Source: an uncultured Phycisphaeraceae bacterium (GTDB lineage Bacteria; Planctomycetota; Phycisphaerae; UBA1845). From it: DNA of 64,000 nucleotides. Positions within the stretch are counted from its first letter, which is position 1; the number at the start of each line of letters is the position of its first letter. Below, piece after piece: positions 11,666 to 60,552 of the stretch. The notes under the pieces were generated by a model. That model saw nothing but the letters and a program-made list of their open reading frames with translations. It was not told the DNA's origin and searched no databases. Where the stretch lies: NCBI GenBank assembly GCA_964574815.1, contig CAZNPL010000007.1:51246-115245 (forward strand), given 5' to 3'. Position numbers and translations under genes: made by a program.

Positions 11666-13580
11666 GTCGGAGTAGGAATCATGATTGCTCATGACCCCCT
11701 CCACAGATCCCAGCGAGCGGGACTACCGCACTGGGCTCCTGCCTCAGGTAATGACGCCCATGCGACGCAGGGGATAGGGATGACAGATGCGGGGCAGAGG
11801 CAACCATTGCGTGATGAGCCGACGCATTCGGTCCCAGGTGACGCGACCCTTGTGGCTTCGCCGCGCCAAGGCGCGATGCCAGAGTCTGCCGACCTCGAAC
11901 CGGAACACGCACAGCGCCCGGCTGTTCATGGGGACACCGTAATAGCGAGTGTGCCCGCTGACGACCGAACGCAACCACTGCCCTACTGCCGGGATCGAGT
12001 CGTGCCAGCGCCGCCGAAGCTCGGCCTTCACCGCCTTCAGCTTCGCCTGCAACCTGCTTCGCATCGTCTGCCGCAACACCGTGAAGCGCCCGTTCCTCTT
12101 CTTCCCGCAAATATGCGTGAAGCCCAGGAAGTTGAACGTCTCAGGCTTGCCCTGACCGTCCCGCCTTCGTCGTTCGGCCGCGAGCGGCCCGAACTCCAGC
12201 AGGCGGGTCTTGTCGGGGTGCAACTCCAGTCGGAACTTGCGGAATCGCTCCCGAAGGTCCGTCAAGAACCGCTCGGCCTCCGATTTGTCTTGGAATCCAA
12301 CGACGAAATCGTCCGCATAGCGCACAACGATCACGTCGCCTCGCGCCTGCGTCTTCCTCCACCATTGAACCCAGAGGTCGAACACGTAGTGGAGGTAGAT
12401 GTTCGCCAACAGCGGCGACACGCTGCCGCCTTGCGGCGTCCCCTCCTCCCTGCGCGTTCGCGTCCCGTCCTCCAGCACGCCCGCGTTGAGCCATTTCTGG
12501 ATCAGCCGCACGACGCGCCGGTCCCCGATGCGGTGCTCGAGGAACTTCACCAGCCAGCCGTGGTCGATGGCGTCGAAAAATCCACGGATGTCGGCGTCGA
12601 GCACCCAGTTCACCTTCTTCGTCAGCAATCCGGTGTACAGGGCGTCCAGCGCGTTGTGCTGGCTGCGCCCCGGCCGGAAGCCGTACGAGAAGCCCAGGAA
12701 GTCGGTTTCGTAGATGGCGTTCATCACCTCGACCGTGGCCCGCTGGACAATCTTGTCTTCCAGCACGGGCACACCGAGCGGCCGCTGCCGCCCGTCGGCT
12801 TTGGGGATGTACACCCTGCGAACCGGCTTGGCCCGGTACGCGCCGCGTTTAAGCCGTTCGCTGAGGTCGAGGAGGTTCTCCTCCAGCGCCTCGCCGTAGG
12901 CTTTCCACGTCTGCCCGTCCACGCCCGGTGCGGCATCCCGCCGGAGGCGGAAGTACGCCTCCCGGAGCATGTCGGGGTCGTAGATGTGGTGCAGCAGCGC
13001 GGTAAACCGCATCCTGCTATCCTTCTTTGCCGCTTGACGTGTCCGCTCCAACGCACTGGGCGCGCTGTCCCGGCACGGAGTCCGGAGCGCGTTTTGTTGG
13101 GGCGGATTCCCTTTGGCCAGGCCCCTTCCCTCCGCCCCCTCCGCGACCGATCGCTCGGCGTTGTTCGAGAGCTTCGCAGGTACTACGGGCCTGTCCGACT
13201 TCCCATGTTCGTTCATCATCGGCGTACGTCCTTGGACTTCCCGACGCGACCCGCGGCCCCATCCGCCACGGGTGAACATGGGACCTCCCGGTTCTCGCGC
13301 GAGGTGTTTCCGCACATGCACGGGGTCTCTGACCGCGCGGAGCCTCGTTGCATCTCGCGATATCGATGCCCCGAGTGTGGCCTTCCGCCTTCTCCTACGG
13401 CGTCGGCGCTCCGGAGTAAGGTTATTTCGCGGCTCAATACCCGGCCTGCGCGTACCCCTGTCAACGCTTCGCCCCTGCCCTCACGGACAGCAACGCATGA
13501 CTCGGGGCCGCTGTGGGCCGCTAACCCTTCAACGTATGACTCTTTCATTCACTACACCTCGCCGGTTTATCCCGGCGCAC
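11666..13580 (-). mobile_element. group II intron, full length (~1.9 kb), carrying an RT/maturase ORF in domain IV
   Basis: On the minus strand the 5' end reads GUGCGCC at 13580. Downstream of the ORF there is a domain V-like hairpin, GAGCCCAGUGCGGUAGUCCCGCUCGCUGGGAUC, containing the AGC triad. Domain VI is GGAGGGGGUCAUGA-GCAA-UCAUGAUUCCUACUCC with a bulged A at about 11673, 7 nt before a ...GAC 3' end at about 11666. Confidence 0.8.
11744..13321 (-). CDS. group II intron reverse transcriptase/maturase (no obvious endonuclease domain)
   Basis: 525 aa. Motifs include RFTALLHHIYDPDMLREAYFRLRRDAAPGVDGQTW, IPKADGRQRPLGVP and the YADD catalytic box (VVRYADDFVVGF), plus a C-terminal maturase tail ending ICHPYPLRRMGVIT. 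The likelier start is MMNEHGKSDRP at about 13219. Confidence 0.9.
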   Translation of the reverse strand: MHVRKHLAREPGGPMFTRGGWGRGSRREVQGRTPMMNEHGKSDRPVVPAKLSNNAERSVAEGAEGRGLAKGNPPQQNALRTPCRDSAPSALERTRQAAKKDSRMRFTALLHHIYDPDMLREAYFRLRRDAAPGVDGQTWKAYGEALEENLLDLSERLKRGAYRAKPVRRVYIPKADGRQRPLGVPVLEDKIVQRATVEVMNAIYETDFLGFSYGFRPGRSQHNALDALYTGLLTKKVNWVLDADIRGFFDAIDHGWLVKFLEHRIGDRRVVRLIQKWLNAGVLEDGTRTRREEGTPQGGSVSPLLANIYLHYVFDLWVQWWRKTQARGDVIVVRYADDFVVGFQDKSEAERFLTDLRERFRKFRLELHPDKTRLLEFGPLAAERRRRDGQGKPETFNFLGFTHICGKKRNGRFTVLRQTMRSRLQAKLKAVKAELRRRWHDSIPAVGQWLRSVVSGHTRYYGVPMNSRALCVFRFEVGRLWHRALARRSHKGRVTWDRMRRLITQWLPLPRICHPYPLRRMGVIT

Positions 13581-39896: not shown

Positions 39897-41504
39897 TCAA
39901 TGCGTGGACGCGGCGAGCCGGAGGGCATCCATCGTGCTCTTGATGCGTTCCTCCACGTCACTTCGTGCGGATCGCACAAGATCATCGAGCGCCTCGACGA
40001 CGCGCGGGTCGAATTGTGCGCCGGCCAGCGACTTGATCTCAGCATAGGCCTCGTCAATCGAGCAGCAGGCCCGATAGACCCGATCGGTCGTCATCGCATC
40101 AAACGCGTTGGCCACCAGCAGCACCCGCGAGCCGATCGGGATCTGTTCCCCGCGCAGCCCGTCGGGGTAGCCGGACCCGTTGTAGTGCTCGCCCTGGTGC
40201 CGGATGATGTGCATCTCGCTGTCGAGAATCCGCAGGTAATCGATGATCCGGACGCTGATCGCCGGCACCTGCCGCATGACCATCTCCTCGATGGACGTGA
40301 GCTTGGACGGCTTCATCAGAATGCGGTCCGGAATCCCTACCTTGCCGATGTCGTGCAGCAGGCCCGCGTTCCGTATGCTCACCGACAACGGTTCGCTCAA
40401 CCGAAGACCGCGCGCGATCCGCTCGCTGTAATAAGCCACATTCAGCGAATGCCGCGCAGTGAAGGGGTCCTTCTCCTCCAGCGCCTGCAGCAGCGAGGAA
40501 ACCGTCTGAATGTAGACCTCCTTCGCCTGCACGCTGAGAACGGCGACCTGCTTTCGAAGCCCGTCGACCTCAACCGATTCGATCCCGAACGAGGTCTCAT
40601 CCGTCACGTCCACGGCCGTCGCCACCTGGTTCCGCCCGGTGCTCTTGGCAATGTACAAGGCCCGGTCTGACAGGTCCACCAGATCGGCGGCCGAGCGGAC
40701 CCGCGGATCGTCCGTCGTGGCGATCCCGAACGAAGCGGTCACCTGATAAGCGCCCAGCGCCGGAACCTGCACCTCGTCGGTGATTGCACGGCGAACGCGC
40801 TCGCACAGGACCAGTGCGTCGTCCATCGCCGTCTCCGGAGCCACGATGACGAACTCCTCCCCACCAAACCGCCCGACCGTATCCACCTCCCGCACGCTCT
40901 CACCCAGGATGCGCGCGATCTCGACCAGCGTGTCGTTGCCGACCAGGTGCCCGAACGTGTCGTTGACCGCTTTGAAAAAATCCAGATCAATCATGATGAG
41001 CGAAAGACGGCCGCCGTAACGCCGCGTCCGCTTCACCTCACGATCGATGATGAAGTTCAGATGATCGTGATTGAACAGCCCCGTAAGTCCGTCAGTAACC
41101 GCCGCCCGCCGCAGCCGCTCGTTCACCTCCCACATCCGAATGCCGACGCGAACCCGCGCCCGCAGCGTCGCCGGATCGATCGGCGTCGCCACGTAATCAT
41201 CGACACACTCCTCCAGCGCCCGCGCCCGTTCCTCGGAACCGTGCGCAGGTCCGACCATCAGGAAGAACGTCGCGGTAAGTTCGGCCGACTCGCGAGTGCG
41301 GCGGCAGAGCTGAATAGCGTCGCAACCGGCGACGCTATGGCCGCACACCACGACCTTGGGACGATGCTCGTTGATCGCACTCCAGCCGAGCTCGCCGTCT
41401 TCGGCCCCGCTGCACGCGTAGCCCGCGCCGCTCAAAACCTCGAGCATGTAGCGCCGCTCCGAGGAATTGCCATCTACGATGCAGACGTCGTACACGGTAC
41501 CCAT
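39897..41504 (-). CDS. pseudo-receiver - GGDEF - HD-GYP three-domain c-di-GMP turnover protein
   Basis: 535 aa. It has a REC-like N-terminus, a GGDEF domain with an RxxD I-site (REVD) and GGEEF, and an HD-GYP domain (LLHDIGKVGIPD...HYNGSGYPDGL). Confidence 0.85.
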   Translation of the reverse strand: MGTVYDVCIVDGNSSERRYMLEVLSGAGYACSGAEDGELGWSAINEHRPKVVVCGHSVAGCDAIQLCRRTRESAELTATFFLMVGPAHGSEERARALEECVDDYVATPIDPATLRARVRVGIRMWEVNERLRRAAVTDGLTGLFNHDHLNFIIDREVKRTRRYGGRLSLIMIDLDFFKAVNDTFGHLVGNDTLVEIARILGESVREVDTVGRFGGEEFVIVAPETAMDDALVLCERVRRAITDEVQVPALGAYQVTASFGIATTDDPRVRSAADLVDLSDRALYIAKSTGRNQVATAVDVTDETSFGIESVEVDGLRKQVAVLSVQAKEVYIQTVSSLLQALEEKDPFTARHSLNVAYYSERIARGLRLSEPLSVSIRNAGLLHDIGKVGIPDRILMKPSKLTSIEEMVMRQVPAISVRIIDYLRILDSEMHIIRHQGEHYNGSGYPDGLRGEQIPIGSRVLLVANAFDAMTTDRVYRACCSIDEAYAEIKSLAGAQFDPRVVEALDDLVRSARSDVEERIKSTMDALRLAASTH

Positions 41505-55073: not shown

Positions 55074-56075
55074 TTAGCCTTGCTCGTTCGACGCTACCGG
55101 CCTGACGCGGCCCTCCAGACCGATGGCCGGCGACCGATCCGAGCCGGCCGAGGCATCAATCACCGCCTCGAAGATCCGGTAGCTCGATGCGGCATCGATA
55201 CCGGGAGCTGCCCGCTCAACGTGGCCCCGCAGGGTGACCTTGCCGTCCCGGCTCCGAAACACAATCCGCGTACCGATCGCGACGTCTGCCGAATCGCGCT
55301 CGGGTCTGGCGAAGCGTATGAGCAATTCCTTGTCACTGATGATGCGCACGACCGGAACCTCCGGGCCGACCACAGCGCCGCTCTGCTGATAAACGCCGGC
55401 CACGGCCCCCTCGAACGACGCCCTCACCTTGCAGTCGTCAAGCAATCGGCCCAGGTTGTCGACCTTCGCCGAAGCCTGCTCCGCGCGAGCTTCGGCTACT
55501 TTGACATTCTGCGCAGCAACGTCGCGAGCATGCTCGGCCTGCGTTGCTTCCCGCTCCGTCTTACTGGCCTCACTGAGGTCCTCCAGCCGATCGCAGTGCT
55601 CCTGCGCATCGGCAAGATTCAATCTGGCGATCTCGACGTCGGACGTGGCCTCTCGCATTGCCGCCTCCGCCGCCTTGAGTTCCGCCTCGATGGAGCCTTT
55701 CTCAAGAATGGCCACAACCTCACCCGGCGAGACTCGATCTCCCAGTCCAACTCGAAGTCCTTCGAGCCGCCCCTCGATCCTGGGTGCGAGGTCCACCGTT
55801 CGCCTGGGCACGACAACACCGACGAACCCCTCATCAAGCCAGTCAAGATGGTCGGCTTCCACCTCAATCCCTGCCGGTTGCCGCTTGGTCCCCTCACCGC
55901 GACCCCCTCCGGACGGAGTCGAACCCTCACCTGCGAAAAGACACGGGCACCACGCCATCAGACCCAACGCCACCACGGTCCGCAACGTGCGCGGGTCGGA
56001 TCCGGATTGCCGTGCCGCGGGACCCTCCCCCCGGTTGTCGCATCTTGCTGTTTTGGTACGAAGTAAAGTGAACAT
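55074..56075 (-). CDS. HlyD/RND-type periplasmic adaptor (membrane fusion) protein
   Basis: It has a lipoyl-like hairpin (APRIEGRLEGLRVGLGDRVSPGEVVAILE), a coiled coil, and a beta-barrel (VRASFEGAVAGVYQQSGAVVG). I prefer the ATG at 56075 (MFTLLRTK...) because the track start at 56150 lies inside the upstream terminator hairpin. Confidence 0.75.
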   Translation of the reverse strand: MFTLLRTKTARCDNRGEGPAARQSGSDPRTLRTVVALGLMAWCPCLFAGEGSTPSGGGRGEGTKRQPAGIEVEADHLDWLDEGFVGVVVPRRTVDLAPRIEGRLEGLRVGLGDRVSPGEVVAILEKGSIEAELKAAEAAMREATSDVEIARLNLADAQEHCDRLEDLSEASKTEREATQAEHARDVAAQNVKVAEARAEQASAKVDNLGRLLDDCKVRASFEGAVAGVYQQSGAVVGPEVPVVRIISDKELLIRFARPERDSADVAIGTRIVFRSRDGKVTLRGHVERAAPGIDAASSYRIFEAVIDASAGSDRSPAIGLEGRVRPVASNEQG

Positions 56076-56112
56076 GGTTCGACGATCCTGACAGGCGTTG
56101 CTCACCACCGCA

Positions 56113-56148
56113 AAAAACGACCGGAGCGGCACGGTCGCCGCTCCGGTC
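56113..56148 (-). terminator. intrinsic terminator after peptide gene 1
   Basis: Minus-strand GACCGGAGCGGC-GACCGU-GCCGCUCCGGUC, a perfect 12-bp stem followed by GUUUUUU. It starts 15 nt after the peptide stop. Confidence 0.8.
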
Positions 56149-56162
56149 ACTCATGCTCGTGA

Positions 56163-56336
56163 TCACACGGGCAGCACGCGGTAGAGCGTCGGATCCTCTT
56201 CGTCGGTCGGCGGCTCTGCCGGCTGCTCATTGATCGGGTCATACTCCTGGGGCTTGTCGTGCCCGCCGCACACCTGCTCCAGTTCCCGGTGCCCCAACTC
56301 GCGCCACAGTTCCTTCTCATTCTTGTGCGAAAACAT
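56163..56336 (-). CDS. double-glycine-leader peptide 1 (57 aa; not in ORF track, below its size cut-off)
   Basis: My own translation: MFSHKNEKELWRELGHRELEQVCGG/HDKPQEYDPINEQPAEPPTDEEDPTLYRVLPV*. The leader fits the GG-leader consensus, with hydrophobic residues at -4, -7, -12 and -15 (V, L, L, W) and Glu at -8. SD sequence AAGGAUGG lies upstream. Confidence 0.75.
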   Translation of the reverse strand: MFSHKNEKELWRELGHRELEQVCGGHDKPQEYDPINEQPAEPPTDEEDPTLYRVLPV

Positions 56337-56486
56337 TGTTCCATCCTTTCGGGTCCTGTTTGAGACCGCCTTGTCCCGGCCTCGCTTTCACTTGAACCGG
56401 CGGACCACCCGCCGGCGTTGTTCGTTTTCCGGTTTTGCGGCTCGAAGTTGCCCTTCTTCTCGCCCCCGAGGCCCGTTCGCCCCGGT
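56337..56486 (-). promoter_or_regulatory. conserved structured 5' leader, copy 1
   Basis: About 150 nt between the predicted -10 element and the peptide 1 ATG. By eye it aligns at roughly four-fifths identity with copy 2. It contains the hairpins CCGGGGC-GAACGG-GCCUCGG, CCGGCGG-GUGGU-CCGCCGG and GAGGCCG-N8-CGGUCUC. Confidence 0.55.
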
Positions 56487-56492
56487 TCACCA

Positions 56493-56523
56493 CGTATACG
56501 CAATCCGCCGCAAAACCTGTCGG
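56493..56523 (-). promoter_or_regulatory. promoter of peptide gene 1 (shared box)
   Basis: Minus strand CCGACA-N19-TATACG. The architecture and the TTGCGTATAC core match those at 57082-57112 and 60553-60583. Confidence 0.5.
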
Positions 56524-56672
56524 CGCAAGGTGGTTTTTTGCCGGAGCCCGGGCCGCGGCCGATGGCACGGAATCAGTCGCAAGGTATCGATTTACTTTAT
56601 CGAAATGCGTTCAAAAACCACGGGATCGAATGGGCGAGTGACGGGGCCGCCGCGGACGCGGCAATGGATGGC

Positions 56673-56711
56673 AAGAAAGAAGACGGGAGCGGGGGGTGCT
56701 CCGCTCCCGTC
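56673..56711 (-). terminator. intrinsic terminator after peptide gene 2
   Basis: Minus-strand GACGGGAGCGG-AGCACCCC-CCGCUCCCGUC, a perfect 11-bp stem followed by UUCUUUCUU. Confidence 0.75.
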
Positions 56712-56737
56712 AGCCGCATGGATCCTTGCAGGAGGCT

Positions 56738-56926
56738 CTACAAGGCCCATACGCGGACAACGTCCGTCTCTTCCTGCTCGAAGCCGTCCGTGGCGGAGCC
56801 CTCCGAAGGATTGCCCTCGTCGATCGGGTCGTACTTCTTCGCAACGGTGAGACCGCCGCAGACTTGCTCGAGTTCATCCTGACAAAGCGCGTGCCACACA
56901 TTCTTCTGAGTTCTTCCGGTGGACAT
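56738..56926 (-). CDS. double-glycine-leader peptide 2 (62 aa)
   Basis: This uses the internal ATG of track ORF 56738..57079. Translation: MSTGRTQKNVWHALCQDELEQVCGG/LTVAKKYDPIDEGNPSEGSATDGFEQEETDVVRVWAL*. It has the same ELEQVCGG leader end and the same SD context (GAAAGGAUGGAACAAUG) as peptide 1. Confidence 0.75.
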   Translation of the reverse strand: MSTGRTQKNVWHALCQDELEQVCGGLTVAKKYDPIDEGNPSEGSATDGFEQEETDVVRVWAL

Positions 56927-57075
56927 TGTTCCATCCTTTCGATCCCTTTGGGGCCGACGTGCCCCGGTCCCGCTTTCACTTGAACCGGCGGACCATCCGC
57001 CGGCATCGCTCGCTTTGCAGTTCTTCGGCTCGAAGTTGCGTCTCTTCTCGCCTCCCGAGGCCCATTCGCCCCGGT
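56927..57075 (-). promoter_or_regulatory. conserved structured 5' leader, copy 2
   Basis: Paralogous to 56337-56486. It differs from copy 1 by 1-nt and 2-nt indels, so no reading frame is shared between the two copies. Confidence 0.55.
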
Positions 57076-57081
57076 TCACCA

Positions 57082-57112
57082 GGTATACGCAACCGACCGC
57101 CCGATCTGTCCC
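57082..57112 (-). promoter_or_regulatory. promoter of peptide gene 2 (shared box)
   Basis: Minus strand GGGACA-N19-TATACC. The spacer GATCGGGCGGTCGGTTGCG is nearly identical to the one upstream of hlyD. Confidence 0.5.
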
Positions 57113-57332
57113 CGCAACATCGTTTTTTGCGGATCCTGCGCTTCTTGCATAAACGCAATGGCATCGCAGTACAGTCTACTTGACACCGTACCAAGAATGG
57201 ACGGCTGAACCGCGCAGGACCGGATCCGCGGTTCGCGGGAGTACGGCGACGCTGAAGGCTTGCAGACACTCTAAATGAGGAAGGAAGTGCGGCGGAATGC
57301 CTTTGCCCGGCGGACGACGCCGCTCAGGCCGC

Positions 57333-59546
57333 TTACTGGACCTGTGCGGCCACGAGCCGTGCGTACGAGCCGTGCCGCTCCAGAAGCTCTTCGTGCGTGC
57401 CGCGCTCGACGAGGCGGCCGTTCTCCATCACCAGGATAAGATCGGCGTGCATCACCGTGCTCAAGCGGTGTGCGATGATGATCCGGGTGCACTCGAGTCG
57501 TTCCAGATGGCGCTGGATACGCTCTTCGTTGACGCCGTCCAAAGCGCTCGTTGCCTCATCCAACAGCAACACGGCCGGGCGCCGGACCAAGGCGCGGGCC
57601 AGGGCGATGCGCTGCCGCTGCCCCTCGGAAAGAGACGCGCCGCGATCGGCCAGCACGGTGTCATATCCCATGGGCATCGCCGCGATCTCCTCGTGAATCC
57701 CGGCCAGCCGGGCCGCGGACATCACCACACCCAAAGGCAGCGTCGGGTCGGCCAGCGCAATGTTCTCGCGGATCGTTCCGGCGAACAGATGCGGCTGCTG
57801 CGGCACGACACCCAGCTGCTGCCGCAGCGACCGGGCATCCAGCCTGCTCGCATCGACGTCATCGTACAGCACCCGTCCAGATGTCGGCCGGTAAAGCTGC
57901 AGCATCAGGCGGGCCAGCGTGGACTTGCCCGCCCCGGACGGGCCGACGATGGCCACCGTCTTGCCAGGCCGGATGTCCACGCTCACGTCCTTCACCACCG
58001 GCTCGGCAGTCGACGTGTGAGAAAACGACACGTTCTCGATGGTAATGCGGCCTCGAAGCCGCTCGGCCCGCTTCACCTTATCAGGCTCCTGCTCGAGCGG
58101 CGCCTGCAGGACGTCGTCGATGCGATCGGTGTATCCCTTCAGCAGTTGCAGCTTGAACGCGGTCGCCACCAGCGTGCCCAGCGGACGCAGGAATCCGGCC
58201 GCCAGCGCCGTCAGCCCGAGCATCGTCCCCAGCGTCAGCTCACCCTCGAGCACCTGCGCCGCTCCGAAGCCGAGAATCAGCAGCGGCGAACCGATCTGAA
58301 GCGTCGAGGAGATCGACTCGACCCACGTCGAGAGCCGCCCGCGCCGCAAGTGCACGTTCATCTCGTCCACATACAGATTGGAGAGCCGCTCCAGGGCACG
58401 GTCCTCCGCCCCGAGAACCTTCAGTGTCTCCATGCCCGACAGCATCTCGGAAAGGTAGCTCTGCGATCGGGCCTGCACCTGAAGGTGCTCGCTCATGAGC
58501 CGCTGGTAAGTCCGCCTCCAAGCAACAAAGACCCCGACCTGCAGCAGCCCGACCGCAACCACCAGCAGCGCCATCGGCGGCGACAGCACGAACATCAAGA
58601 GCAAGTAGGCGCACACCAGCCCGCCGTCCAGCAGCCCCGAAACCGTGCCCGACGTGAGGATCTCGCGGATCGTCGCATTGCTGTTGAACCGCATCATCAG
58701 ATCGCCGGTCGGCCGGCGCTGGAAGAACGCATAGGGCAGTTGCACCAGATGGCTGATGAAATTCAGCGTCATCTGCACGTTCAGGTGCGTCCGCAGATGC
58801 AACAGCAGCCGCCCGCGCACCAGCGCCGACAGAAAGCTGAAGAACACCACGCACCCGAACCCGGCCGCCAGCGTCGTCATCAGCCCGTAGTCCGAGCGGG
58901 GAATCACCCGATCCACCAGCACCTGCGTCATCACCGGAAGCGCCAATGCGAACACCTGGATCAGCAACGACGTGATCACGACCCGCGACAGCAGCCCGCG
59001 ATGGGCGAGCACCTGTCGAAAGTGCCACCGGGACGGGGCGGCGCCGGGTGCGGACGTTTCAAACCGGTCTCCCGGCTCAAACGTAAGCGCCACGCCGGTG
59101 AACGAACGACGCAGCTCGTCAGAACTGACGCGGCGTCGCCCAACGGCAGGATCGTAAACATCCTCCCCGTCCCGATGGGCCTTCTCGTGAACGACAAAGT
59201 GGTTCAGGTTCCAGTGCAGGATCGAGCCGGCCGGCAAGTACTTGAGGTCCTCGACCTCGATCCGGACGCCGCGGCCGCGAAGGCCATAATCGCGGCCGGC
59301 CTTCAACAGAGACTGGGCGCTGACGCCGTCGCGGGCCGTCCCCGTCCGCTGGCGAACGTCGTCCAGCACCACGGACTTTCCGTGGTAGCCGAGAGTCATC
59401 GTCAGGCATGCGGCACCGCAGTCGGTTGGGGTCAACGCCTCCACAAACGGGATGCGACCGCAGCGGCCGTTGTGCTCCAACCGCCCGATGGCCGGGAATC
59501 TCCGCCGAAGAGACGGTGCTTTATTTTTCGCTAGCGTCGTCGTCAT
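57333..59546 (-). CDS. peptidase-containing ABC transporter (PCAT): C39 peptidase domain + ABC exporter
   Basis: 737 aa. The C39 domain has catalytic Cys (LTPTDCGAACLTM), His (HWNLNHFVVHE) and Asp (VYDPAVG). This is followed by 6 TM segments, Walker A GPSGAGKST, signature LSEGQRQR, Walker B LLLDEATSALD and the H-loop AHRLS. Confidence 0.9.
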   Translation of the reverse strand: MTTTLAKNKAPSLRRRFPAIGRLEHNGRCGRIPFVEALTPTDCGAACLTMTLGYHGKSVVLDDVRQRTGTARDGVSAQSLLKAGRDYGLRGRGVRIEVEDLKYLPAGSILHWNLNHFVVHEKAHRDGEDVYDPAVGRRRVSSDELRRSFTGVALTFEPGDRFETSAPGAAPSRWHFRQVLAHRGLLSRVVITSLLIQVFALALPVMTQVLVDRVIPRSDYGLMTTLAAGFGCVVFFSFLSALVRGRLLLHLRTHLNVQMTLNFISHLVQLPYAFFQRRPTGDLMMRFNSNATIREILTSGTVSGLLDGGLVCAYLLLMFVLSPPMALLVVAVGLLQVGVFVAWRRTYQRLMSEHLQVQARSQSYLSEMLSGMETLKVLGAEDRALERLSNLYVDEMNVHLRRGRLSTWVESISSTLQIGSPLLILGFGAAQVLEGELTLGTMLGLTALAAGFLRPLGTLVATAFKLQLLKGYTDRIDDVLQAPLEQEPDKVKRAERLRGRITIENVSFSHTSTAEPVVKDVSVDIRPGKTVAIVGPSGAGKSTLARLMLQLYRPTSGRVLYDDVDASRLDARSLRQQLGVVPQQPHLFAGTIRENIALADPTLPLGVVMSAARLAGIHEEIAAMPMGYDTVLADRGASLSEGQRQRIALARALVRRPAVLLLDEATSALDGVNEERIQRHLERLECTRIIIAHRLSTVMHADLILVMENGRLVERGTHEELLERHGSYARLVAAQVQ

Positions 59547-60480
59547 GGCTCAATCCCTTTACCGCGGGCAATAGCGTGCTGATCATGCGCTCCGTCCGGA
59601 CGCGGGCCTCGGCCCGAGCCACCATGCCGTCGTGGTACCGGTAAGTCCGGCCATCGGCCTCGAACGTGTCGCCGGGCAGCGTCGCCCGCACGATCACGAC
59701 CGATGCCGGAAGCTCGACCGCATCGGCGATTCCGGGATCCAGGAGCCGCCGGGCCTCCTTCGGGCCGATCACCTCGTCGGCGACGAGGTCGATCGTGACG
59801 TCCTGGTACGCGTACTTGTAACCGTCCAGCTCGATCCGCAGCTCCTGCCCCTCGCGAAGCATCGGACGGTCCTCACCCGGGAGCAGGGCCTCGATCGAGT
59901 AGGCCGCGTCTTCGTGGATCACCGAAAGGATGATGTCGCCGGGCTGAACGTGCTGCCCGGGCCGAACGCGGACGTCGCTGATCCGGCCGGCCCGCGGGGC
60001 CCGCACCGTGCGCTCGCGAAGCCGCGACTCGGCAAAGGTCCGCTCCGTCTCGAGGGTGCCGACCGCTCGGGCAGCCGACTCGTTGTTGGGGTCTCGCAGG
60101 TAGGCGACGAGCTGCGTCTCGATGTTGTCGCGGATGCGGGTCAGCTCCGCACGCTCGGCGGCGTCGTCGAACCGCACCAGAAGCTGTCCTTTGGTCACGC
60201 GCTCGCCCGGGCGAACCTCCACGGCGCCCACGGTGCCGGGCGACTTGGCCGGCAGGATGGTGCGGCCGGAGCACCGGACGAAAGCGGGCCCGGCGGCCCA
60301 CTGGGGGTTGGGCGCCAGGACGACGAAGCCGACCATGACGACGACGGCCGCCACAACCACCCAGTACGTCCTGGCGATCCAGGCGGGAGAGAGCCGCAAC
60401 ACGTCGCCGTCGGCCTTCTGTCCCATGGTATGGTGCCTGACGGCCTCAGTGCGGAACAGGTTGGCGATCGGTGCGGACAT
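59521..60480 (-). CDS. HlyD family secretion adaptor (CvaA/LcnD type)
   Basis: I prefer the ATG at 60480 (MSAPIANLFRTEAVRHH...) preceded by GAAGG. It has a single N-terminal TM segment, a coiled coil and a barrel. The track start at 60549 would lie at or upstream of the predicted transcription start. The gene overlaps the PCAT gene by 26 nt. Confidence 0.8.
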   Translation of the reverse strand: MSAPIANLFRTEAVRHHTMGQKADGDVLRLSPAWIARTYWVVVAAVVVMVGFVVLAPNPQWAAGPAFVRCSGRTILPAKSPGTVGAVEVRPGERVTKGQLLVRFDDAAERAELTRIRDNIETQLVAYLRDPNNESAARAVGTLETERTFAESRLRERTVRAPRAGRISDVRVRPGQHVQPGDIILSVIHEDAAYSIEALLPGEDRPMLREGQELRIELDGYKYAYQDVTIDLVADEVIGPKEARRLLDPGIADAVELPASVVIVRATLPGDTFEADGRTYRYHDGMVARAEARVRTERMISTLLPAVKGLSHDDDASEK

Positions 60481-60552
60481 CGGAATCGACCTTCTGGCAT
60501 AATCGTCGGTCTCGCAGAGTCCAGGCCGGAAGTCCAACGCTCCAGCCACCGA

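Follow-up and report, generated by a model that had tools for sequence, protein, structure and literature searches.

Two short genes encoding secreted peptides of the double-glycine (GG) type, here called pepA and pepB, lie in tandem in a 64,000-nucleotide (nt) stretch of DNA from an uncultured Phycisphaeraceae bacterium (assembly GCA_964574815.1, contig CAZNPL010000007.1, positions 51,246 to 115,245), and each is preceded by a copy of the same noncoding leader. We refer to the whole 64-kb stretch as the window; all coordinates are those of the window, in which the peptide cluster occupies the minus strand at 55.0 to 60.6 kb. The leader is the best-preserved and the sole strongly conserved part of an otherwise near-saturated cassette. 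We give an even chance to the reading that it is a transcribed, structured 5' untranslated region (UTR) whose effect on both peptide mRNAs is exerted in cis, at the RNA level, within self-contained cassettes. As such it is an orphan, lineage-restricted candidate cis-regulatory RNA, seen in one genome and two probable sister lineages.

Conservation and coding potential of the leaders

Aligned end to end, the leaders of pepA (copy A) and pepB (copy B) are identical at 142 of 168 positions, or 84.5%, compared with a shuffled baseline of 53%; the original prediction, made by eye, had been about four-fifths. It had also held that the peptide codons diverged further than the leader, and the coding sequences (CDSs) are indeed only 62.6% identical over their whole length, with 68% identity in the codons of the GG leader peptide (shuffled baseline, 50%) and 59% in those of the core (shuffled baseline, 50.5%). 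Outside the leaders and the genes little similarity is left: the 5' flanks of the two copies are 55% identical against 52 ± 2% after shuffling, and the 3' UTRs are 54% identical against 49 ± 3%. Because these flanks are so near the shuffled baseline, the duplication must be old and the unconstrained DNA close to randomized, which upholds the earlier argument that the leaders are not alike merely through a recent duplication.

The differences between the leaders consist of 24 substitutions (17 transitions and 7 transversions) and two indels, one of 1 nt at alignment column 40 and one of 2 nt at columns 146-147; both indels had been reported and both are real. A 34-mer from the leader occurs exactly twice in the window, with 0 occurrences expected. 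That the leader might be a genome-wide repeat was considered and rejected as far as the window shows, since there are exactly two copies and both are 5' of peptide genes.

The block was predicted to be noncoding, and the inconsistency of its frames agrees with this: no open frame is common to both copies from the same start to the same stop, and the substitutions between the indels fall 9/7/3 by codon phase, with no excess at the third position. One supporting claim, that the open reading frames (ORFs) over the block give unrelated translations, stands only in part, in that the frames are broken by the indels but the translations in one frame between the indels are similar, trivially so because nucleotide identity is high. 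A reading in which the block extends the peptides at their N termini or contains a conserved upstream ORF could appeal to that frame and to the long ORFs that span the block (56738..57079, in frame with pepA; 56147..56503; and 56317..56568), but it is effectively refuted: the 2-nt indel puts the pepA-phase frame of copy A out of phase with pepB in copy B, the 1-nt indel cuts candidate starts off from the shared frame, many of the changes are nonsynonymous and stops occur in the other frames, a strong Shine-Dalgarno (SD) sequence lies 4 nt before both short-form ATGs, and the JGI gene calls are 62 and 57 amino acids.

Predicted fold, promoter-like block, and proposed mode of action

The original prediction proposed three shared hairpins; the RNAalifold consensus has four (P1 to P4) common to both leaders. 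P1 pairs CCGGGGC with GCCUCGG and includes one G.U pair, P2 pairs GGC..GAAG with CUUC..GCC around a variable loop, and a variable, A-rich linker of 22 nt then leads to P3 (GCCGGCGG/CCGCCGGU), which is followed by the invariant 15-nt segment GUUCAAGUGAAAGCG. P4 is variable in sequence, with its pairing kept. The consensus also contains a multistem junction closed by a long-range helix, in which columns 1-14 pair with 110-123. The SD region, CGAAAGGAUGGAACAAUG, is unpaired, and the SD is free in all minimum free energy (MFE), centroid, and consensus folds. A search by eye for a partner that might sequester it gave only 4- to 5-bp complementarities, none compelling, and the idea was dropped. The terminator scan found no sense-strand hairpin plus U-run inside the leader, sense terminators occurring only after the CDSs, and what follows P3 on the sense strand is UUCAAGUG, not the U-run of a transcription attenuator. 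Because the SD is exposed in all predictions and the leader has no terminator, a riboswitch that works by sequestering the SD or by terminating transcription is not indicated.

The composition of the leader is strongly asymmetric between the strands. Its sense strand has 27% A, 37.5% G, and 11% T, compared with strand averages of 17% for A and 19% for T, a purine asymmetry that would be expected of an RNA more than of a protein-binding site in double-stranded DNA. Purine-rich segments that are predicted to be single stranded (UGGUGAA, GGCGAGAAGA, GUUCAAGUGAAAGCG, and CGAAAGGAUGGAAC) are invariant, and this invariance, which equals that of the stems, suggests that a shared partner recognizes them by sequence, beyond mere protection by hairpins.

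About 45 nt further upstream of the leader are also conserved, but patchily, at 69% identity between the copies compared with 47% after shuffling. This block reads CAAAAAAC-N4-TTGCG-N2-GACAG-N5-GCGG-N2-G-N-TTGCGTATAC, and its degenerate pattern occurs exactly twice in the window (0 expected). From its sequence, we take it to be a putative promoter. No TANNNT occurs in either copy from -215 to the ATG, and no sigma-54 GG-N10-GC motif is common to both copies over the same interval; the only TA dinucleotides there, at -162 and -160, are those in GTATAC. If a -10 element of the sigma-70 family exists, it would thus have to be TATAC, which in copy A falls inside the leader as first delimited. As TATAC is the only plausible -10 element, the transcript would begin about 150 nt ahead of the ATG, with P1 close to its 5' end, some 6 to 10 nt from the start so placed; a start near the ATG seems unlikely. 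Readings of GACAG-N16-CGTATA as an extracytoplasmic function (ECF)-like promoter were made by eye only and are left as speculation.

We propose that each peptide gene may form a self-contained, duplicated cassette of about 590 bp, consisting in order of a promoter/operator block (A-tract, TTGCG, GACAG, TATAC), a 5' UTR of about 150 nt, the SD, the ORF for the GG-leader peptide, and a terminator. Each peptide gene has its own intrinsic terminator, and the two therefore look like monocistronic cassettes, repeated at an interval of about 590 bp. In the mRNA, the SD (GGAUGG-N4-AUG) would be strong and exposed, and the four GC-rich hairpins would display the invariant purine-rich single-stranded segments, which would set the stability and the translation rate of both peptide mRNAs in parallel. 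The most likely route would be the docking of a shared trans-acting factor, either an RNA-binding protein or a small RNA (sRNA), while sequestration of the SD by a ligand-induced refolding would be a less likely one. GGA motifs are conserved in both copies at -20, -10, and -6, one of them overlapping the SD and none of them in predicted hairpin loops; the partner could be a CsrA-like factor acting at these three motifs around the SD, or it could be an sRNA.

The original prediction of a cis-regulatory RNA finds partial support in the noncoding nature of the block, its constraint beyond that of the CDS, its sense-strand fold, and its purine bias. The consensus fold has an MFE of -55 kcal/mol, a structure conservation index (SCI) of 0.87, and a z-score of -4.5 on the sense strand, compared with -2.4 on the antisense strand, and z is -4.7 if the consensus is begun at the predicted transcription start; the z-scores come from a column shuffle that does not preserve dinucleotides. 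Variable columns are depleted in predicted pairs (6 of 85 paired columns compared with 21 of 83 unpaired columns; Fisher p = 0.0015, or p = 0.027 for local hairpins only), a test that leans toward the structure because that structure was fitted to the same two sequences. The G.U pairs in P1 and P3 are kept in both copies, and P4, which lies in the most variable stretch, is still paired by virtue of an A:U-to-G:C change.

Several points weigh against an RNA-level function. Besides the leanings of the shuffle and of the pairing test just given, the z-scores of the single-sequence folds are weak (-1.5 and -2.2), the identical runs in the leader alignment are not significantly clustered (P = 0.2), and 27 of the 30 hairpin pairs are invariant in the two paralogous copies (shuffle control, 387/500). 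Among the pairs that vary, the compensatory change claimed for the last hairpin is real, but the same 7-bp register of P4 carries a G.U-to-A.C break in copy A, so that covariation counts one for and one against; with two sequences, it is no test of structure. A strict sigma-70 scan gave 0 sites, and the spacing from GACAG to TATAC, at 18 to 19 nt, is long. Finally, no leader homologue was recovered by Rfam, covariance model, nhmmer, pattern scans, or plasmid search, and our analysis identified no trans-acting factor.

Export cluster and relatives of the leader and peptides

The cluster has the features of a GG peptide export locus, with a GG cleavage motif in the peptides, a C39-type ABC transporter, and HlyD_3 matches in both flanking proteins (Table 1). 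The transporter, whose top NCBIfam match (NHLM_micro_ABC1) is below the cutoff, is presumed to be the exporter and the processing enzyme of both peptides. The cores of pepA and pepB are both acidic and free of Cys and have a common YDPI-E motif; neither matches a family in Pfam or NCBIfam. Downstream of the peptides, the real start of the second HlyD-like gene is probably downstream of the listed GTG. No regulator gene was found adjoining the export cluster.

Table 1. Features of the peptide cluster and its two leaders (window coordinates)
Feature	Position	Strand	Details
HlyD-family membrane-fusion protein, first gene of the export cluster	59521..60549	-	Pfam HlyD_3 and Biotin_lipoyl_2; NCBIfam type_I_hlyD below cutoff
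Peptidase-containing ABC transporter (C39 + ABC_membrane + ABC_tran)	57333..59546	-	94%-identical homologue P0004 with PF03412, PF00664, PF00005
Copy A promoter-like block (putative)	57093..57135	-	CAAAAAAC 57129-57122; TTGCG 57117-57113; GACAG 57110-57106; then TATAC 57087-57083
Copy A leader	56927..57092	-	P1 57074-57055; P2 57052-57027; variable A-rich linker 57026-57005; P3 57004-56984; invariant GUUCAAGUGAAAGCG 56985-56971; P4 56971-56950; SD GGAUGG 56936-56931
pepA	56738..56926	-	62 amino acids; double-glycine leader (…ELEQVCGG/); acidic core without Cys
Intrinsic terminator of pepA	56672..56711	-	11-bp stem and U-rich tail
Copy B promoter-like block (putative)	56504..56545	-	CAAAAAAC 56540-56533; TTGCG 56528-56524; GACAG 56521-56517; then TATAC 56498-56494
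Copy B leader	56337..56503	-	P1 56485-56466; P2 56464-56439; linker 56438-56417; P3 56416-56396; invariant segment 56397-56383; P4 56383-56362; SD 56346-56341
pepB	56163..56336	-	57 amino acids; double-glycine leader peptide; orthologue P0002 82% identical
Intrinsic terminator of pepB	56111..56146	-	Hairpin and UUUUUU; read directly: CCGGAGCGGCGACCGTGCCGCTCCGG TCGTTTTTTG
Second HlyD/RND-adaptor-like protein, 3' of the peptides	55074..56150	-	Pfam HlyD_3 and HlyD_D23; NCBIfam RND_mfp 94.7 bits vs cutoff 94.9

The peptide family has five members: pepA and pepB, P0124 and P0002 (both on one 4,280-bp contig), and P0125 (on a 1,609-bp contig). ELEQVCGG is invariant in all five. Both contigs that bear relatives come from JGI sample 3300042731 and represent two other lineages only. 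P0124 holds the same position on its JGI contig as pepA does in the window but is too diverged to be found by a single-sequence search (roughly 60% identical by eye), and P0002 differs from pepB at 10 of 57 residues. The transporter on the 4,280-bp contig is 94% identical to that of the window and the peptides are far less so, which means that evolution is much faster in the peptides than in their exporter. Outside the leader, most of the spacer cannot be aligned between the two window copies, and yet the spacers 5' of six peptide genes in three lineages measure 406, 401, 392, 407, 395, and 396 nt. Spacers held at 392 to 407 nt indicate that the geometry of the cassette is conserved.

P0125 looks chimeric, with an N terminus of the pepB type and a C terminus of the pepA type, a sign that recombination or diversifying selection may be at work in this orphan family of acidic GG peptides. 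A profile of the peptides also matches 8 or 9 tandem repeats in two large proteins, P0126 (1,630 amino acids) and P0127 (940 amino acids), via (D/Q)(V/I)CG...(D/E)YDP; this resemblance is probably due to chance or low complexity, though it falls exactly over the GG cleavage site and the YDPI segment.

No search extended the leader beyond the window. Both leaders were searched against the Rfam covariance models, as the original prediction had proposed, and no family matched. Rfam 15 at gathering thresholds, run on the window, gave no match in the leaders, and Rfam at E ≤ 10, run on the 1.4-kb region and on the two leaders singly, gave nothing relevant; the sole permissive matches, HIV-1_DIS at 13 bits and group-II-D1D4-3 at 12 bits, are far below threshold. 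The earlier impression that the leader belongs to no known riboswitch class, among them ZTP, guanidine-I, glycine, c-di-GMP-I/II, and cobalamin, is thus borne out by the empty Rfam 15 search. With nhmmer --max, blastn, and a covariance model, neither the window nor 90 related loci yielded a further leader, and the model (R1), run with filters off on six of these loci (L085 and L087 to L091), gave no match. A scan of a genome collection with the transporter reached a top match of 56% identity, with no leader among 80 loci. Viral-contig scans and a distant BLAST search against plasmids gave nothing, and nothing relevant turned up when the literature was searched for GG-peptide genes with conserved leaders. 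A metagenome match to a 20-mer from P3 and its tail was rejected as a single chance match inside an hscB gene.

One Logan contig (L082) is 100% identical to the window. A protein search found no relatives of the transporter between 94% and 61% identity, and those at about 60% (L083 to L091) belong mostly to lanthipeptide clusters. One of these clusters (L088, 3653-5175; Logan SRR21707673) has a transporter 60% identical to ours and four tandem precursor genes, which are most alike in their leader-peptide codons, with one pair also alike over about 97 nt upstream; a GC-rich hairpin recurs after the genes. Since these precursors are most alike in their leader-peptide codons, a UTR conserved beyond the CDS is not the default for tandem genes of this kind, resembling those for ribosomally synthesized and posttranslationally modified peptides (RiPPs). 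At another related transporter locus, on a TARA scaffold (L086, 423-2985), a gene for a protein with an FHA domain and a sigma-54-activator (enhancer-binding) domain adjoins the lanthipeptide precursor, and some relatives of the transporter locus may use sigma-54 control.

Two further features of the window lie outside the cluster. At 39897-41504 on the minus strand, 15 kb from the peptides, is a gene whose product joins a response-regulator receiver to GGDEF and HD-GYP-type HD domains (cyclic di-GMP turnover). At 13323-13543, also on the minus strand, Rfam matches group II intron domains D1-D4-6 (197 bits, E = 5e-58), and the same strand carries, directly downstream at 11744-13321, a 525-amino-acid ORF that probably specifies the intron-encoded protein.

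Alternative explanations and comparison with known systems

The leader could instead act as DNA, as a long promoter/operator in which the inverted repeats P1 and P3 bind dimeric transcription factors and transcription starts near the ATG. The 7-bp arms of P3 form a perfect palindrome around a 5-bp spacer (CCGGCGG-N5-CCGCCGG) and the P2 stems are perfectly palindromic too, the equal invariance of stems and unpaired segments is what sequence-specific DNA recognition would produce, and related transporter loci adjoin enhancer-binding proteins, as in L086. We nevertheless consider this unlikely: near-continuous conservation over about 165 bp goes far beyond typical operator arrays, the purine asymmetry is strong and strand specific, and P1 needs a G.U pair that in DNA would be a G-T mismatch. 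Nor is there, downstream of GTATAC, a TANNNT or a common sigma-54 -24/-12 motif from which to start, and there is no regulator gene beside the cluster.

It is also conceivable, if distinctly unlikely, that the leader has no function of its own and that gene conversion keeps the tandem leaders alike while diversifying selection on the peptides inflates the divergence of the CDSs. The peptides do evolve fast, as the differences between pepB and P0002 attest, P0124 was missed by single-sequence search although the transporters are 94% identical, the chimera-like P0125 hints at recombination within the family, and the identical runs lack significant clustering. What gene conversion explains poorly is that the substitutions and both indels are spread over the whole leader with no clean conversion tract, that the conserved tract has the promoter-like block at one end and the ATG at the other, that substitutions avoid the predicted stems, that the composition is strand asymmetric, and that the spacer is held to so narrow a range in three lineages.

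An orphan riboswitch would have P1 to P3, possibly closed by pairing of UUGCGUAUAC with GUGAAAGCG, as its aptamer and P4 with the SD region as its expression platform. The long-range helix that closes the multistem junction fits such an arrangement, as does the aptamer-like distribution of conservation, with invariant junction strands and a variable P2 loop, linker, and P4; the location 5' of small-peptide ORFs recalls the Downstream-peptide (glutamine-II) motif. We regard this as improbable, for the leader matches no Rfam class at E ≤ 10 and neither a leader terminator nor an SD-sequestering helix is predicted. The closing helix would require TTGCGTATAC to be transcribed, yet the same segment contains the only -10-like element, and the genomes in which the element is seen are very few, in contrast to the usually broad distribution of riboswitch classes; nor does it have a linked metabolic gene. 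A narrower form of the idea, in which an undescribed aptamer-type RNA of restricted distribution senses a small molecule, the exported peptide, or a by-product and so gates GG-peptide production cassette by cassette, appears slightly more doubtful still.

Very improbable, finally, is that the block encodes or is the target of an independent sRNA, either an antisense transcript ending at the plus-strand P3 or a short sense transcript ending at P3. The plus-strand P3 hairpin of copy B has a T-rich tail and was flagged as terminator-like (56397-56415, plus strand), and the antisense consensus fold has a z-score of -2.4; but copy A does not conserve the T-rich tail, which falls within the variable linker, folding is better on the sense strand, and there is no evident antisense promoter.

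If the leader is a cis-acting 5' UTR, its closest functional parallels may be structured 5' UTRs that stabilize mRNAs, such as that of E. coli ompA and the processed, hairpin-protected lanA mRNAs of lantibiotic clusters. Like these, it would be a noncoding leader of more than 100 nt whose SD is exposed and whose stable hairpins include one near the promoter, and it stands 5' of a monocistronic, terminator-bounded gene for a product that would be needed in abundance. It differs from them in having no sequence or structural homology to them and in having unpaired segments as invariant as its stems, which a pure stability element would not need. Like the Downstream-peptide motif/glutamine-II (RF01704) and the glnA RNA, it would be a conserved structured RNA directly 5' of very short peptide ORFs, but no covariance-model match to these was found at E ≤ 10, and the architecture, the host group, and the linked genes (export by a peptidase-containing ABC transporter and HlyD) are different.

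Leaders bound by CsrA/RsmA offer another comparison. Here too, the last 20 nt before the start codon contain three conserved GGA motifs, one of them over the SD, and AAAGGAUGG in the leader resembles ARGGAUG, the core consensus of CsrA/RsmA obtained by systematic evolution of ligands by exponential enrichment (SELEX), with the caveat that any SD of the AGGA type resembles a CsrA site. Unlike in CsrA/RsmA leaders, the conserved GGA motifs are not in hairpin loops, and they leave the conservation of P1 to P3 unexplained.

With respect to its genes, the locus resembles the double-glycine loci of class II bacteriocins, microcins, and pheromones, with HlyD, a peptidase-containing ABC transporter, and tandem GG-leader peptides (…ELEQVCGG), but its peptide cores set it apart, being acidic, free of Cys, and without a family match. 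In the related lanthipeptide-type loci it is the leader-peptide codons that are most alike (L088), while here the 5' UTR is conserved beyond them. To our knowledge, regulation of double-glycine secreted peptides is known almost only at the transcriptional level, via quorum-sensing two-component systems. The reach of the present case is small at present, extending to one genome and two probable sister lineages. If our reading is true, however, double-glycine secreted peptides would have a cis-regulatory motif of their own that falls in no known class, and in a peptide family that diversifies fast the regulatory RNA would be under stronger constraint than any other part of the cassette; the motif could then be used to search for orphan peptide genes that escape detection by homology.

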